Virus record (IMG/VR): IMGVR_UViG_2671180984_000014
Strand: one strand, 5' to 3'
Source of the DNA: a virus
Lineage: Duplodnaviria; Heunggongvirae; Uroviricota; Caudoviricetes
DNA length: 64,000 bases
This document shows positions 12,604 through 63,898 of this stretch, piece by piece (positions within the stretch are counted from its first letter, which is position 1; each line of letters opens with the position of its first letter). The notes below the pieces were generated by a model. It was not told where the DNA came from and ran no database searches. It was given only the letters and a program-made list of their open reading frames with translations. The position numbers and the translations under genes are program-made.

Positions 12604-12739
12604 GTATTTTTAAGTCGCGAATGCTATCTTTTCGCATCATATTGACCTTTTAATCGTTCAGGCTTATAGTTCCGCCGTCGTAGCAAATTCTGCGACCGGG
12701 TTTAGCAGCCTGAATACTTACGCGGACAACCGCAGATTT

Positions 12740-12840
12740 CCGATATTGCGGTATTTTTGTGTCCGTAAACCACGTTACGCCCGAATTATGGTGGGGCGTG
12801 ATGGGGAGGCTTCGGCCTGCTGGTTTCGTAAGTGCCAGTC
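12740..12840 (+). ncRNA. c4: c4-type antisense immunity RNA (approximate bounds)
   Basis: Non-coding stretch between operator and icd containing block TTATGGTGGGGCGTGATGGGGAGGCTTCGGCCTGCTGGTTTCG, conserved in a second copy at 63759-63802; upstream hairpin plus T-run at 12730-12757. Confidence 0.35.
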
Positions 12841-12915
12841 TGCTAACCCCGTCACGTCCTGCCACCTGTTTAGCAGCGGGTCGCAGGTTGTTTATCAACT
12901 TACGAGGCCGTAACT

Positions 12916-14344: not shown

Positions 14345-15145
14345 ATGCAACAAACATTCAATGCGGATATGAATATATCAAACCTTCATCAAAATGTCGA
14401 TCCTTCAACCACTCTGCCCGTTATTTGTGGTGTTGAAATTACGACCGACCGCGCTGGCCGTTACAACCTTAATGCTCTACACAGAGCGAGCGGACTCGGT
14501 GCCCATAAAGCGCCAGCTCAATGGCTAAGAACGCTGTCAGCTAAACAGCTCATCGAAGAGCTTGAAAAAGAAACTATGCAGAATTGCATAGTTTCGTTCG
14601 AAGGCCGTGGCGGCGGCACTTTTGCCCATGAATTGCTCGCAGTGGAGTACGCTGGTTGGATTTCTCCTGCGTTTCGGCTGAAGGTAAACCAGACATTTAT
14701 CGACTATCGAGCTGGAAGATTACAACCTGCTATTCCGCAGAGTCTCCCAGAAGCTCTCCGTTTGGCTGCCGACCTGGCAGAGCAAAAGCAACGGCTGGAG
14801 CAAAAAATGCTGATGGATGCACCTAAAGTCGAATTCGCCGAACGCGTTGCTACCGCCAGCGGGGTTCTAATCGGCAACTATGCCAAAGTGCTCGGCCTGG
14901 GCCAAAACTATCTCTTCACCTGGTTGCGTGATAACGGAATTCTGATCGCAACCGGTGAACGCAGGAACGTCCCCAAACAAGAATACATATCCCGTGGGTA
15001 TTTCACCCTTAAAGAAACCGTGATCGATACAAGCAATGGAAGCAGGATTTCTTTCACGACTCGTATAACCGGCAAAGGTCAGCAGTGGCTGATGAAGCGA
15101 TTGCTTGATGCTGGTGTGCTGGTACCTGTCGCGGCAGCGCGCTAA
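14345..15145 (+). CDS. kilA: KilA (266 aa; KilA-N plus Ant-type C-terminal domain)
   Basis: N-terminal KilA-N-like region; C-terminus paralogous to Ant1; size matches P1 KilA. Confidence 0.75.
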   Translation: MQQTFNADMNISNLHQNVDPSTTLPVICGVEITTDRAGRYNLNALHRASGLGAHKAPAQWLRTLSAKQLIEELEKETMQNCIVSFEGRGGGTFAHELLAVEYAGWISPAFRLKVNQTFIDYRAGRLQPAIPQSLPEALRLAADLAEQKQRLEQKMLMDAPKVEFAERVATASGVLIGNYAKVLGLGQNYLFTWLRDNGILIATGERRNVPKQEYISRGYFTLKETVIDTSNGSRISFTTRITGKGQQWLMKRLLDAGVLVPVAAAR

Positions 15146-15174: not shown

Positions 15175-16020
15175 ATGCTGGCTAAAGTCACTTTCCTGAG
15201 CTGTATAACGATGAGCGATTTTACTTTTTCTGGCTATGAATTGGCCTGCTTTGTAACACACTCCGGTCTATCCCGTAGCGCCGGGCATATCCTGTCGCAA
15301 TGTGCAAATCTCGCGGCAACAACCAGTGAATACTTCATTCACAAGCCTCACCGCCTGATCGCGGCAGAAACTGGTTATAGCCAATCAACCGTCGTTCGTG
15401 CATTCCGTGAAGCTGTAAACAAAGGAATCCTGTCAGTAGAGATTGTTATCGGCGATCACCGTGAACGTCGCGCTAACCTGTACCGGTTTACACCATCCTT
15501 TTTGGCCTTCGCACAACAAGCAAAAAATGCGCTGATTGAAAGCAAATTAAAGATCTCTTCAGCGGCAACCAAGGTTAAAGCTGTTCTCGCTAAGACATTG
15601 GCTTTATTTAATTTTTTATCCACACCCCCATGTCAAAATGATACCCCCTCCCCCTGTCAGGATGACGTGGCAATAAAGAATAAGAAGTCACAATTTAAAA
15701 AAACAAAAAGATCAGTTTCCGGCGCTGCCGGAACGACCAAACTCAAAAAATTGACTTCATGGATCGCTGAGGCAAAAGCAAAGGCTGACAATCTGCGGTT
15801 ATCCAAAAAACGCGCTCAAAAACATGAGTTCAAGCAGAAAGTAGAGGCGGCAGCGCGGAAATATGCTTACCTGAAGAACAAGCGTTCTCCTGATATTGGC
15901 GGGGTATCAAACTTCGATAATCTGCCGCATTGCATGACGGTAAACGAAGCTCTTAATGCGGTTTTAGCCAAAAATAAAGATAACGAACAATGGGGTATAC
16001 CGGCAGGATTCAGAGGGTGA
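15175..16020 (+). CDS. repL: RepL lytic-replicon initiator (281 aa)
   Basis: Position directly after kilA, basic C-terminal half, size as P1 RepL. Confidence 0.65.
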   Translation: MLAKVTFLSCITMSDFTFSGYELACFVTHSGLSRSAGHILSQCANLAATTSEYFIHKPHRLIAAETGYSQSTVVRAFREAVNKGILSVEIVIGDHRERRANLYRFTPSFLAFAQQAKNALIESKLKISSAATKVKAVLAKTLALFNFLSTPPCQNDTPSPCQDDVAIKNKKSQFKKTKRSVSGAAGTTKLKKLTSWIAEAKAKADNLRLSKKRAQKHEFKQKVEAAARKYAYLKNKRSPDIGGVSNFDNLPHCMTVNEALNAVLAKNKDNEQWGIPAGFRG

Positions 16021-16023
16021 TAG

Positions 16024-16040
16024 ATTGCTCTAATCTGGAG
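16024..16040 (+). promoter_or_regulatory. partial C1-operator-like site (ATTGCTCTAATCTGG)
   Basis: 11-nt match to the operator left half, just after repL. Confidence 0.3.
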
Positions 16041-16070
16041 TCACCTGGCGTTTTCAGTTTGAGGTCGGAG

Positions 16071-16316
16071 ATGCAATCTGATTTTTTACAGTTAGCGATC
16101 GCTTTTGCAGGATATGTTTGTATTGGCTTCTGTGTATACATGATCAGCCGAAAAATGCTTGTCGATATCGACCGCAAAGAACAAGCAGAGGAGATCTTAG
16201 TATGGATTTTCTTTGGCGCGGTCTGGCCATTAGGGATCATGTTTGCTGCAACATTTCTTCTGATGTGGATATTCACCCTTCCAGGTGATTTCTATAGAAA
16301 AAAAGCCAGACATTGA
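16071..16316 (+). CDS. small two-helix membrane protein (81 aa)
   Basis: Internal ATG of track ORF 15990-16316; two hydrophobic helices. Confidence 0.35.
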   Translation: MQSDFLQLAIAFAGYVCIGFCVYMISRKMLVDIDRKEQAEEILVWIFFGAVWPLGIMFAATFLLMWIFTLPGDFYRKKARH

Positions 16317-16439
16317 TACAATCGTTGCGGGTGCTTGAGGCTATCTGCTTCAGGCATTACCCGAAAAGCAGATAGAAGAAAGCCCCAGATAACATTACGC
16401 GTCCTGCAAGACGCTTAACATTAATCTGAGGCCACATCT

Positions 16440-16646
16440 ATGCTTAGCATACGTAGATTAGCCTCTTACCGACCAAAAGGTCAAGGAGAAGCAGGCTATG
16501 AAGCAGCAAAAAGCGATGTTAATCGCTCTGATCGTCATCTGTTTAACCGTCATTGTGACGGCACTGGTAACGAGGAAAGACCTCTGCGAGGTACGAATCC
16601 GAACCGGCCAGACGGAGGTCACTGTCTTCACAGCCTACGAATCTGA
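16440..16646 (+). CDS. mok: mok-like overlapping reading frame of the hok locus
   Basis: 68-codon frame starting upstream of hok and overlapping it in another frame, the classical mok arrangement. Confidence 0.45.
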   Translation: MLSIRRLASYRPKGQGEAGYEAAKSDVNRSDRHLFNRHCDGTGNEERPLRGTNPNRPDGGHCLHSLRI

Positions 16647-16653
16647 AAGGTAA
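16498..16653 (+). CDS. hok: Hok/Gef-family type I toxin (51 aa)
   Basis: MKQQKAMLIALIVICLTVIVTALVTRKDLCEVRIRTGQTEVTVFTAYESER aligns with Hok ([26 protein letters not shown]); AAGGAG SD; below track size cutoff. Confidence 0.8.
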   Translation: MKQQKAMLIALIVICLTVIVTALVTRKDLCEVRIRTGQTEVTVFTAYESER

Positions 16654-16721
16654 GAGACCTGGCGGGGAGAGATCCCCGCCACTCTTCGTGTGTCAGGTAT
16701 CCTCAATGCACCCTTTCCTCT

Positions 16722-16748
16722 CCAAATAAAAAAGCTCCCGAAGGAGCT
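16722..16748 (-). terminator. rho-independent terminator ending the minus-strand head/tail operon
   Basis: Hairpin AGCTCCCGAAGGAGCT with T-run on the minus strand; may also end the hok transcript. Confidence 0.6.
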
Positions 16749-16769
16749 TTAAAATACAAGGGATTACTA

Positions 16770-17279
16770 TTAATCCCACTCAATCCAGTTGTAGACGATA
16801 CGAAGTGACGGGCGCACAGCGGCAGTCACATCTTCGGTACTAAAGTCGATTGCATCACTGTAGATTTTGCAGTCCAACATTTCAATTGTTGTAGCAGCTT
16901 TTGTCACAGCGTTAACCCCGGAAGATTTGGATTCAGGGGTAGCAGCCATCGTGATATCAACATAGTCCTTCGCCGCAATGCGATCCTTGATGAACTGAAG
17001 AATATCGCCTTCGATAGTCTCCACGCACTGGACCTGGATTTCCCCAGAGTTTCGAATTGGTCCGTGCTGGTTGAACTTCACACCATTCGGACCATAGTCC
17101 TCCACATCCTCGCGGGTCATTTCAGGAATTTGCGACGTGCGAACCAGTACGCTGATATCTTCATGGCCTGCAACAGTGAGCTGGAATTCAGAAGATACCA
17201 GTCGTTCGCCTTTGGCCGCGTTGGCAGTATAGCGGCCCTTAATAAATTTACGGTTTCCCTTAGTGTTATTGTGCCCCAT
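16770..17279 (-). CDS. virion structural protein (169 aa), possibly tail tube-like
   Basis: Last gene of the sheath-containing operon. Confidence 0.35.
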   Translation of the reverse strand: MGHNNTKGNRKFIKGRYTANAAKGERLVSSEFQLTVAGHEDISVLVRTSQIPEMTREDVEDYGPNGVKFNQHGPIRNSGEIQVQCVETIEGDILQFIKDRIAAKDYVDITMAATPESKSSGVNAVTKAATTIEMLDCKIYSDAIDFSTEDVTAAVRPSLRIVYNWIEWD

Positions 17280-34162: not shown

Positions 34163-34237
34163 GATGGTGTAGCTCAGCGGTAGAGCAGTTGGCTGTTAAC
34201 CAACTGGTCGGTAGTTCGAATCCACCCACCATCGCCA
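34163..34237 (+). tRNA. tRNA-Asn (anticodon GTT)
   Basis: Acceptor GATGGTG/CACCATC, anticodon loop CTGTTAA, T-loop TTCGAAT, 3' GCCA. Confidence 0.8.
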
Positions 34238-34242
34238 CTTTA

Positions 34243-34328
34243 GGGGAGTTAGTCCGTAGGGGTAGCGGGGTAGACTGTAAATCTACTGTCATTGCGACTC
34301 GGGTGGTTCGACTCCATCACTCCCCACC
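34243..34328 (+). tRNA. tRNA-like element, anticodon loop CTGTAAA (GUA, Tyr-like) with long variable arm and irregular D-arm
   Basis: Acceptor GGGGAGT/ACTCCCC, perfect anticodon stem GTAGA/TCTAC, T-arm GGTGGTTCGACTCCATC, ACCA end; D-arm does not fold canonically. Confidence 0.4.
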
Positions 34329-34333
34329 ACATT

Positions 34334-34409
34334 GCCGATTTAGCTCAGTTGGTAGAGCAGTCGCTTTGTAAGCGAATGGTCAGCGGTTCGATCCCGTTAA
34401 TCGGCACCA
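34334..34409 (+). tRNA. tRNA-Thr (anticodon TGT)
   Basis: Acceptor GCCGATT/AATCGGC, D-arm GCTCAGTTGGTAGAGC, anticodon loop TTTGTAA, T-loop TTCGATC, CCA. Confidence 0.8.
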
Positions 34410-35282
34410 ACATAACAGGTAAGAGCATTCTCCCTTATGGGGCCTGGCTTAAATGCATCGAGTGCTCTTACCGTTGTGATGAAGTGCAGATCTTAGAAGC
34501 AACCAGAAGATAAGCATCTGGCTTCACAACATAAACCGCAGGAACGACCAATAAACGGTAGTCCGTATGGAGAACACCCCGTTGAGGAAGAGGCCTGGCC
34601 GGAACCGTAACCGGCGACTGGTAATGTGTGTAAATGGAGCGAAATATGTGGGCGTTTAACGGGATACGGGTTGTAACAGCGATTATTAACGGCGAACTTA
34701 AGTATTCACGTTTCGAGACAAATGAACGTGATGGGAAATGTATTGGTGTGCGGTTAGTAAGAGAATACGCATAACAACTACAACGTTGAGAACACTGGCG
34801 TAACGGGGTCATATCCCAATCTACGAATAAATGTTGCGTTGCCGCGTGACAACCAGTGTTCTCAACATTGTGGTGAATGCACAGGCTGATGTGCCGCAAC
34901 TACAGTAGTGCGCGCTTTGCGGGGCTTGCTACAACCCTGTGTCGGAGTTCAGCACCGACCATCACAGTTTGATTCTCTGGCATGAGCATAACGCTGAAAT
35001 AAGTCCAGTCTGGTGCGGTCTGATCACCCGCCGTTAGCTCCACGAAACGGAGCACGTAACAGGTAAGAGCATTCTCCTGTAACGGGTTCATATCCCAATC
35101 TACAGGTCCACCAAGAATGCTCTTTCCGTTGCGGTGAATGCGGCTAAGCGCACGCGGGGAAATGGTTATATCTGTCCATTATTTCTCCTTGTTTCCACGT
35201 CCACGGTGGATAACCAGCCAAAGGACACCGGGAGGAACCCGGCACCGCAGCTTTTTTATTCGTTAAATAATGGAGTGAGAGG

Positions 35283-35519
35283 ATGCAGAACAATCCGAAC
35301 AAATGTCGAACGCTATGGGTGCGGTTATATATTTATGCCGTCCTCTGTTTGATTGTGTCACTGGTTCTGTATGTTTGGCTTTTGCCAAATATGATCTCAT
35401 CTAACAGCACAATACTTGTATTGTTGGGAGTCCTTCTCGCGCTCATTTACCCGGCTTTCGCAGTAGTCTTTTTTCGTGAAAAAACCAGGAAATTAATTAA
35501 TGAAAAAAACGTTGATTAG
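35283..35519 (+). CDS. small membrane protein (78 aa)
   Basis: Two hydrophobic helices; coupled to downstream lipoprotein gene. Confidence 0.4.
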   Translation: MQNNPNKCRTLWVRLYIYAVLCLIVSLVLYVWLLPNMISSNSTILVLLGVLLALIYPAFAVVFFREKTRKLINEKNVD

Positions 35520-36327
35520 TGCAGCGATTATTTTGGGTTCTTTATGTCTGACCGGATGCGATCGGGTAGAGCCAGGTAACGTAGGGATCAAAGTAAATAA
35601 GCTGGGGGATGATAAAGGTATCGGTGAAGTAGTTGGCGTTGGTCGCTACTGGACAGGCTTGAATACTGAAGTTTATATCTTCCCGACCTTTAAGCAAATG
35701 AAGACATACGATGAGCCGTTCAGCTTCCAGATGAGCGACGGAACAACCATTGGTTACCACATCGGCGTAGCCTACAAGGTTGATCCAGCAAAAGTCACAA
35801 CGGTATTTCAGACCTATCGCAAAGGTGTAGATGATATTACTGATACCGATCTACGCCAGAAGGTTGCAGATGCTCTGAACCGATTAGCCAGCAAAATGAC
35901 CACCGACAAATTTATCGACGGTGGCAAATCTGAATTGCTTGATGCAGCCCTTAAAGACATTCAGGAAGAAATGACGCCAATCGGCATTCAGGTGATGAGC
36001 CTCTCTTATGTAGGTAAGCCAGAATACCCGCCAACAGTTATTGACAGTATTAACGCCAAAGTCACGGCAAACCAAAAAACCCTGCAACGCGAGCAAGAGG
36101 TCAAACAACGTGAAGCAGAGGCCAACATGCTGCGCGCGGAAGCTGCCGGACAGGCTGATGCTATTCGCACAAAAGCCCAGGCCGAAGCTGATGCCATTCG
36201 TTTACGTGGTGAAGCTCTGCGCCAGAACCCCGGTGTTATGGACTTGGAAGCGATCAACAAATGGAACGGTACATTACCGCAGTATATGACCAGTAATACC
36301 GCTGTTCCGTTTGTTCCGGTGAAATAA
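35500..36327 (+). CDS. SPFH/band-7 domain lipoprotein (275 aa)
   Basis: Lipobox LCLTGC; prohibitin/HflC-like core and Ala/Glu/Arg-rich coiled-coil tail. Confidence 0.6.
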   Translation: MKKTLISAAIILGSLCLTGCDRVEPGNVGIKVNKLGDDKGIGEVVGVGRYWTGLNTEVYIFPTFKQMKTYDEPFSFQMSDGTTIGYHIGVAYKVDPAKVTTVFQTYRKGVDDITDTDLRQKVADALNRLASKMTTDKFIDGGKSELLDAALKDIQEEMTPIGIQVMSLSYVGKPEYPPTVIDSINAKVTANQKTLQREQEVKQREAEANMLRAEAAGQADAIRTKAQAEADAIRLRGEALRQNPGVMDLEAINKWNGTLPQYMTSNTAVPFVPVK

Positions 36328-36354
36328 AAGCGTAAGCAAAATTGGCAGTAATCC

Positions 36355-36430
36355 GGCCCTTTAGCTCAGTGGTTAGAGCTGGCGACTCATAATCGCACGG
36401 TCACCGGTTCAAGTCCGGTAGGGGCCACCA
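36355..36430 (+). tRNA. tRNA-Ile2 type (anticodon CAT; could be read as Met without lysidine)
   Basis: Near-identical in architecture to E. coli ileX: acceptor GGCCCTT/AGGGGCC, anticodon loop CTCATAA, T-loop TTCAAGT, CCA. Confidence 0.8.
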
Positions 36431-58393: not shown

Positions 58394-58621
58394 GTGTTTA
58401 TGCAATCCATTAACTTCCGTACCGCGCGCGGCAACCTTTCTGAAGTGCTCAACAATGTTGAAGCCGGGGAAGAGGTTGAAATCACCCGCAGAGGCCGTGA
58501 GCCAGCAGTAATTGTCAGCAAGGCTACTTTCGAAGCCTACAAAAAAGCGGCGCTGGATGCTGAATTTGCATCCCTGTTTGACACCCTGGACTCCACCAAC
58601 AAGGAACTGGTTAACCGATAA
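58394..58621 (+). CDS. phd: Phd antitoxin (73 aa)
   Basis: [73 protein letters not shown]. Confidence 0.9.
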
Positions 58622-59001
58622 TGAGGCATATATCACCGGAAGAACTTATTGCGCTTCATGATGCGAATATAAGCCGCTACGGCGGCCTGCCTGGCATGTC
58701 AGATCCGGGCAGGGCAGAGGCCATTATCGGGAGAGTTCAGGCCAGAGTTGCCTACGAAGAGATCACCGACCTTTTCGAAGTCTCCGCCACCTACCTGGTG
58801 GCTACAGCGAGAGGGCATATATTCAATGATGCCAATAAGCGTACCGCGCTAAACAGCGCGCTGCTATTTCTACGCCGTAACGGGGTGCAGGTATTTGATT
58901 CACCTGAACTGGCAGACCTTACTGTAGGCGCTGCGACTGGCGAGATATCTGTATCTTCTGTCGCCGACACGTTACGTAGATTGTATGGTTCCGCGGAGTA
59001 G
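58621..59001 (+). CDS. doc: Doc toxin (Fic-fold kinase, 126 aa)
   Basis: Start overlaps phd stop (TAATG); [10 protein letters not shown] Fic-like motif. Confidence 0.9.
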
Positions 59002-63580: not shown

Positions 63581-63699
63581 TGTTTTTTAGCTACCGATGT
63601 TACATTGAACCTGACCTCTTGCGCCTTGAGGCATTTTCGGTTTATGCTTATCAGGCACCTCATTAAAACGGGTGCCGGGATTGGCCTCCCGCTTAAGTC

Positions 63700-63815
63700 T
63701 AAGGCGATACAGACGCCGCTCGCGTCTTTTTTTGTATCGGCGTACACGCACACCTCTACAATGGTGGGCTGTATGGGGCTACCTTCGGGTAGGCTGGTTA
63801 CCTTGGACGCCAGTA
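63700..63815 (+). ncRNA. second c4-like antisense RNA (approximate bounds)
   Basis: Hairpin plus T-run at 63706-63731, then block CAATGGTGGGCTGTATGGGGCTACCTTCGGGTAGGCTGGTTACC homologous to 12786-12828. Confidence 0.35.
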
Positions 63816-63898
63816 AGGCCAACTCCGTACAGTCCACCGCCAGCAAGATTGGTCTCTTCTGCGGTGGTTACATACCAACGTCTAAGGAGGCTGCCAAT

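Follow-up and report, generated by a model that had tools for sequence, protein, structure and literature searches.

What kind of locus lies between repL and bplB in this P1-like phage-plasmid, and what would it do for the element that carries it? The window (the whole stretch of DNA that was analyzed, 64,000 nucleotides in length) is a segment of a P1-like phage-plasmid, and an initial annotation had placed in it a hok/mok-type type I toxin locus at 16380-16660, which would add post-segregational killing to an element already equipped with phd-doc. In our analysis, the locus is very probably an intact hok/mok/sok type I toxin-antitoxin module of the HokD/HokW (lambdoid-prophage) subfamily, carried on a cargo cassette of 693 bp that occupies the variable region between repL and bplB. 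The assignment to the Hok/mok/Sok family is supported by Pfam and Rfam matches above curated cutoffs, by 87.8% nucleotide identity to the hokW/mokW/sokW locus of 933W/Sp5, by the pairing of the predicted RNA structure in 66 homologues, and by the presence of phd-doc elsewhere in the window. The span given initially is too narrow, as the functional unit extends from the hok promoter at about 16295 to the fbi element ending at 16713 (Table 1). The locus is already known, since it is annotated in RefSeq and GenBank, and it is an ordinary element of its kind.

Table 1. Features of the hok/mok/sok locus, its cassette, and other parts of the window (positions are those of the window).
Feature	Position	Strand	Description
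C4 antisense RNA and a1/b1 targets	12664-12869		
kilA	14345-15145		
repL	15175-16020		
Cargo cassette	16035-16727		693 bp; 81-aa membrane ORF and hok/sok; ends are BLAST breakpoints versus NC_005856
81-aa ORF	16071-16316	+	Directly upstream of hok in the same cassette; two predicted transmembrane segments
Putative hok mRNA promoter	16295-16322	+	TAGAAA, 16-nt spacer, TG-extended TACAAT
tac element	16329-16340	+	5′ end of hok mRNA, GGGTGCTTGAGG
First leader hairpin of hok mRNA	16341-16375	+	Helix 1 of RF01794; arms CTATCTGCTT (16341-16350) and AAGCAGATAG (16366-16375)
Putative Sok-like antisense RNA	16448->16378	−	About 71 nt; position transferred from the annotated sokW misc_RNA of AF125520 (phage 933W)
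mok frame	16440-16646	+	68 codons, ATG start, out of frame with hok, stops 7 nt before the hok stop
Putative Sok promoter	16455-16484	−	−35 TTGACC (16484-16479), 18-nt spacer, −10 TAATCT (16460-16455)
hok toxin gene	16498-16653	+	51 aa, MKQQKAMLIALIVICLTVIVTALVTRKDLCEVRIRTGQTEVTVFTAYESER; single transmembrane helix, then periplasmic tail
3′-UTR hairpin	16661-16682	+	GGCGGGGAG/CTCCCCGCC
fbi (fold-back inhibition) element	16701-16713	+	CCTCAATGCACCC, complementary to tac
Four tRNA genes	34163-36427		
phd-doc	58400-58998		
isrK and C4 antisense RNA	63655-63844		

The 51-amino-acid Hok/Gef ORF of the initial annotation is present, and alignment to Hok family profiles, which that annotation had proposed as a check, yielded a match to the full profile of Pfam PF01848 (HOK_GEF; 42 of 42 positions, E = 2.4e−22, 78.7 bits against a cutoff of 22). 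The protein also matches PHROG 251, “MokW-like host killing” (E = 4.9e−32). As read from the sequence, it has a hydrophobic stretch at residues 7 to 24, Cys30, and Tyr47, and thus the layout by which Hok/Gef proteins are recognized: an N-terminal transmembrane helix, a periplasmic tail, a conserved Cys, and, near the C terminus, either a second Cys or a Tyr open to editing. Forty-seven of the 51 residues are identical to those of HokW, the same number to those of Rac HokD, and 23 (~45%) to those of R1 Hok. The identical gene is named hokD in RefSeq (“type I toxin-antitoxin system toxin HokD”), a name without HMM equivalog support here because the protein scores below the cutoff of the NCBIfam Hok HMMs (49.5 bits versus 73), while one GenBank record for “Punavirus P1” calls the gene MokW. 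A search by sequence for a solved structure of Hok found none.

The codon for Tyr47 is TAC followed by G (16636-16639), inside the motif CUACGAA, and the predicted fold around it is weak (−2.9 kcal/mol). In HokC, HokD, and HokE, the residue at the Tyr47 position has been reported to be changed from Tyr to Cys by TadA A-to-I mRNA editing (PMC12214031), and the toxicity of the Hok protein encoded here may depend in part on such editing.

Upstream of the toxin gene, a consensus scan identified a candidate promoter for the hok mRNA (9 of 12 consensus matches plus the TG extension), with a predicted transcription start near 16329. Its −10 box ends 6 nt upstream of the first base of the Rfam model RF01794 (“sok”), which aligns over its full length (model positions 1 to 157) with 16329-16503 on the plus strand (114.8 bits against a gathering score of 59; E = 2.2e−25 over the whole 64-kb window). 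Because the model ends on the hok AUG, the match represents the leader of the hok mRNA in sense orientation, and, since the model describes this hok-strand leader, the match is not direct evidence of a Sok transcript. A minus-strand “sok” match (16238-16386, 21 bits, E = 0.054) was set aside as noise, the strong match to this leader model being on the hok-sense strand, and other weak Rfam matches (ceN48, CRISPR-DR46, and sbrA) all fell below the gathering score. Neither the Rfam scan of the whole window nor a tblastn search with two Hok queries detected a second hok locus in the 64 kb.

The leader model also accounts for the 10-bp inverted repeat that had been placed upstream of the locus, at 16338-16372. 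The repeat is indeed perfect, but its arms lie about 3 nt away from those positions (Table 1), and, instead of being an upstream element, it is located within the hok transcript. A role as an upstream operator or terminator was ruled out, as the repeat forms the first helix of the hok leader in the Rfam model and has undergone compensatory changes: the helix (helix 2 in our count) is 97.7% paired among the homologues, and two of its pairs are compensated, one from A-U to G-C in 8 sequences and the other from C-G to U-A in 12. The latter change marks the P1-type lineage.

At the scale of the entire transcript, the full-length hok RNA (16329-16720) has a minimum-energy fold of −157.7 kcal/mol (z = −8.3 versus shuffles), in which a 12-bp helix with one bulge joins tac to fbi. 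Trimming of the 3′ end to 16686 removes fbi, and the 5′ end of the shortened RNA is predicted, on thermodynamic grounds only, to refold onto 16348-16362. This is the same kind of switch as that described for R1 hok mRNA. From the modeled structure, the active, processed hok mRNA likely has its stable 3′ end at the 3′-UTR hairpin. Between fbi and 16780 (16714-16780), we found no convincing intrinsic terminator on the plus strand, and hok transcripts may therefore run antisense into bplB. Two hairpins in this area, at 16731-16750 (shared with bplB) and at 16760-16777, resemble terminators of bplB on the minus strand; the first is without a downstream T-run on the plus strand.

To evaluate the predicted structure across relatives, pairs were counted in homologues against the structure of the window. 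A scan of viral contigs gave 80 loci, and, with duplicates removed, 67 sequences were aligned, 66 of which are distinct (alignment A3). Across the 66 distinct homologues, standard pairs occupy 92.9% of structure cells, compared with 36 to 43% in a slid control, in which the 3′ partners were moved by 1 to 3 columns, and 10 pairs are changed on both sides. The tac-fbi helix is paired in 98.5% of cases, and the only failures come from the rows L013 (identical to L016) and L022, which have foreign DNA in place of the 3′ end. The 3′-UTR hairpin (helix 16) is 90.4% paired, and in 11 sequences both sides of one of its pairs have changed. Entropy is low in the hok coding sequence (0.06) and in the hok Shine-Dalgarno (SD) region (0.03); tac is invariant (0) in the 66 distinct homologues, and fbi is nearly so. 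Within the subfamily, the tac-fbi helix does not vary on both sides, and no covariation was detected between its strands. At the sequence level, the support for the proposed tac-fbi pairing comes from conservation and from a single compensatory pair relative to R1 (U-A here versus C-G in R1).

In the three P1-like relatives L013, L016, and L022 (locus ~880-923, A3 columns ~377-428), the hok 3′ hairpin is interrupted by the start of unrelated DNA (…CATAAGCGCTAACTTAAGGGT…), which stands in the place of fbi. These insertions recall the IS-disrupted chromosomal hok loci of K-12.

The 68-codon frame that the initial annotation had assigned to the mok position was borne out as well. It overlaps hok out of frame, its start is located inside the Sok target, its ATG is conserved in 65 of the 66 homologues, and its frame and length equal those of the annotated mok of Rac (MN652886). 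As a conserved protein in its own right, mok was rejected: it has no Pfam match, and its sole match, PHROG 37205, is merely a collection of this overlapping frame. As in R1, it is the translation of mok, not its product, that is thought to matter.

On the opposite strand, the pair of hexamers proposed earlier, TTGACC and TAATCT, is present, but the spacer between them counts 18 nt and not the 17 nt first given. A generic promoter scan missed this pair, whose −10 hexamer matches the consensus at 3 of 6 positions. The putative Sok promoter aligns with the sokW promoter of 933W (TTGCCT, 17 nt, TAACCT), and it is this homology, rather than consensus strength, that supports its designation as a candidate promoter. 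Both hexamers are kept among the homologues (majority frequency of 0.95 to 0.96). The Sok-like RNA is predicted to consist of a single-stranded 5′ tail of about 16 nt (16448-16433), which covers the mok start, followed by a long hairpin and then by GGGGCUUU (fold of −29.3 kcal/mol, z = −4.6).

The segment that comprises the Sok 5′ tail and the mok start (16432-16448, 17 nt) is the most variable part of the locus, with an entropy of 0.78 and 19 variants among the 66 distinct HokD/HokW-type loci. One possible reason is that co-resident hok/sok modules have diverged in antisense specificity.

Copies of the locus that are 100% identical to that of the window occur in phage vB_EcoM-Ro157c2YLVW and in many P1-like plasmids, such as pO111_2 (NC_013370), and more than 100 plasmids carry the identical locus. 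Outside P1-like elements, the best matches are found in lambdoid prophages, namely, Rac hokD (91.5% nucleotide identity) and the 933W/Sp5 locus mentioned above. The homology to lambdoid prophages covers window positions 16317-16713, and its limits coincide exactly with the hok −10 box and the end of fbi. The hokW-mokW-sokW locus of the Stx2 phages 933W/Sakai prophage 5 (AF125520) has the same leader hairpins, Sok hairpin, tac, fbi, and placement of the putative Sok promoter as the window. The two nevertheless differ at about 6 of the 17 positions of the Sok 5′ recognition tail, as well as in the host element, which is a plasmid-prophage in the window and an integrated lambdoid prophage in 933W. 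They also differ in the mok frame: mokW is in frame with hokW and encodes a 70-amino-acid, N-terminally extended Hok (1616-1828 in L001), whereas mok is out of frame in the window, R1, and Rac. The in-frame arrangement in 933W is due to a 1-nt deletion (AAAGG-CAAGG versus AAAGGTCAAGG in the window), and this deleted form is present in 50 of the 66 aligned loci. With the extra T, which the window shares with Rac, mok is again out of frame, and the same base gives rise to the TTGACC −35 hexamer of the putative Sok promoter.

The hokD locus of Rac (relF; intact version in MN652886) shares with the window the 68-amino-acid mok frame, the TTGACC −35 hexamer, and the TAATCT −10 hexamer; it differs at 1 of 17 positions of the Sok tail and at 4 of 51 residues of Hok. 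Unlike the window, Rac has its own intrinsic terminator directly after fbi, and its upstream neighbor gene and genomic context are also different. R1 hok/sok (parB), the prototype of the family, shares the tac-fbi lock, the RF01794 leader, an out-of-frame overlapping mok, a Sok promoter (putative in the window) on the opposite strand inside the leader, and a 3′ hairpin, but its leader hairpins are unlike those of the window in length and sequence, and it resides on an IncF conjugative plasmid.

Among these relatives, hokW-sokW is the closest that has been tested experimentally (Takada et al. 2021; PMC8621323). HokW, whose sequence is 92% identical to that of the toxin here, is toxic and inserts into the inner membrane. 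It is neutralized by sokW in a manner that requires the sokW promoter, as a mutation of the −10 box abolished antitoxin activity, and that depends partly on RNase III and partly on Hfq. After mitomycin C treatment, sokW is lost, and HokW is seen about 1 h before endolysin. Deletion of the locus halves the release of Sp5 phage, and hokW-sokW was shown to aid lysis and release upon induction (PMC8621323).

The borders of the cassette that carries the module can be placed by comparison with reference P1 (NC_005856), to which homology ends at window position 16034 and returns at 16728; the 693-bp cassette stands in place of the 1826-bp rlfA-rlfB-pmgF segment. The site has been described as “variable region 5” of P1-like phage-plasmids (PMC9603915), and RCS47 carries a gene for an IS605-family transposase there. 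The cassette is absent from reference P1 and P7, and about half of P1-like plasmids have other cargo at the site. It is nonetheless common, given that, among 644 plasmid records retrieved with a left-junction probe, 301 cover the junction. We consider the cassette a clean example of how a lambdoid-prophage toxin-antitoxin module, with its limits exactly at the promoter and fbi, came to lie in a site known as a variable hotspot in P1-like genomes. A weak terminator-like site (16273-16288) lies between kilA-repL and hok/sok. The left junction (16034/16035) falls inside the P1 C1 operator Orlf (Op55; 16024-16040), of which the first 11 bases are kept (ATTGCTCTAAT|CTGGAG in the window versus ATTGCTCTAAT|TATAAC in P1).

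The 81-amino-acid ORF of the cassette matches PHROG 3772, a family of unknown function, over its full length (E = 7.9e−54) and has no match in Pfam or NCBIfam. A 108-amino-acid reading from 15990, which overlaps the end of repL, probably does not represent its real start. Farther away in the window, phd-doc was found as the initial annotation had stated, and it is 99 to 100% identical to what we take to be the Phd and Doc sequences of P1. The two C4 loci and the tRNA genes fit a P1-like genome with two immunity-type regions.

The mechanism of the hok/sok family was worked out decades ago. Our proposal for this locus follows the canonical R1 hok/sok model, every element of which has a counterpart here, and the resulting scheme, as we reconstruct it, involves no departure from the canonical one. 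The weak hok promoter would give rise to a stable hok mRNA starting at about 16329. In the full-length RNA, fbi would pair with tac, and the RNA would neither be translated nor bind Sok. Slow 3′ trimming to the 3′-UTR hairpin would then remove fbi, and the ensuing refolding of the 5′ end would expose the mok start and the Sok target. Meanwhile, the stronger promoter on the minus strand would supply the short, unstable Sok RNA, which would pair with the mok initiation region, block translation of mok and the coupled translation of hok, and mark the duplex for RNase III. Once the supply of Sok ended, whether through loss of the plasmid-prophage or through shut-off at induction, the processed hok mRNA would be translated, and the 51-amino-acid Hok would enter the inner membrane and collapse the membrane potential.

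On this analysis, the most likely role of the module is that of a second addiction system beside phd-doc, and it may additionally help lysis upon induction, as described for hokW-sokW. That the locus adds post-segregational killing, as first suggested, is plausible. Chromosomal hok loci of this kind reportedly fail at post-segregational killing, according to work cited in a large survey (10.1101/2025.08.07.668861), and hokW-sokW, the nearest relative with experimental data, serves phage release and not maintenance (PMC8621323). The element probably carries two independent addiction-type modules, the type I hok/sok and the type II phd-doc, which are relevant to the persistence of P1-like elements, often with resistance genes, in Escherichia coli and Salmonella.

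Addiction, assistance with lysis, and phage exclusion share one molecular mechanism, and the latter two roles are live alternatives to the first. The module could have been selected primarily to aid host lysis and phage release when a P1-like prophage is induced, in which case Sok would be lost and Hok would damage the inner membrane before holin and endolysin act. The closest tested homologue behaves in this way (PMC8621323), the HokD/HokW subfamily is typical of prophages, and the cassette is located directly 3′ of the C1-controlled lytic replicon kilA-repL, with the weak terminator-like site alone between them. However, P1-like elements are low-copy plasmids with an obvious benefit from addiction, the effect in Sp5 is only about 2-fold, and read-through from repL or transcriptional interference is hypothetical here. 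We regard this role as possible but somewhat unlikely to be the selected one, and it is not mutually exclusive with addiction. It is quite unlikely that the module serves mainly as an abortive-infection or phage-exclusion device, which would be triggered when a lytic phage shuts off host transcription and Sok is depleted. On a high-copy plasmid, R1 hok/sok lowered the plating efficiency of T4 by 42% and its plaque size by about 85%, as cited in PMC8621323, and the variable regions of phage-plasmids often hold defense cargo. Yet a high copy number was needed for the R1 effect, and P1-like plasmids exist at close to one copy; hok genes were not enriched beside defense systems in a large survey (10.1101/2025.08.07.668861); and nothing in the window bears directly on exclusion.

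It is also conceivable, though very improbable, that the locus is an inert or decaying hitchhiker with no current function, comparable to the hok loci on the E. coli K-12 chromosome, most of which have been inactivated by insertion sequences or rearrangements. In favor of this reading, foreign DNA breaks the 3′ hairpin and removes fbi in the P1-like relatives L013, L016, and L022, and about half of P1-like plasmids have other cargo at the site. In the window, by contrast, all regulatory elements are intact, with preservation of the putative Sok promoter, the mok frame, and the hok ORF. Moreover, among the homologues, the noncoding tac is invariant and fbi nearly so, and helices stay paired via compensatory changes. 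These observations argue against an inert locus.

Beyond addiction, we conjecture, although we consider it unlikely, that two features of the locus have further roles: the Sok 5′ tail and its mok-start target would be a fast-diversifying determinant of specificity, and the placement of the cassette would couple the release of Hok to the P1 lytic switch. If so, the diversity of Sok tails could keep the module of a P1-like plasmid orthogonal to modules of the hokW type that Stx and other lambdoid prophages carry in the same EHEC cell. The cassette, which directly follows the C1-controlled lytic operon kilA-repL and has its left junction in Orlf, could make the module an induction-timed lysis aid, instead of or beside an addiction module.

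Beyond its correct annotation, the locus itself is of little interest. Our literature search turned up no study devoted to hok/sok in P1-like elements. A recent preprint on STEC plasmids mentions type I and type II toxin-antitoxin modules on a P1-like plasmid (PMC13596339), and, according to a large survey (10.1101/2025.08.07.668861), prophages and large plasmids are enriched in hok.
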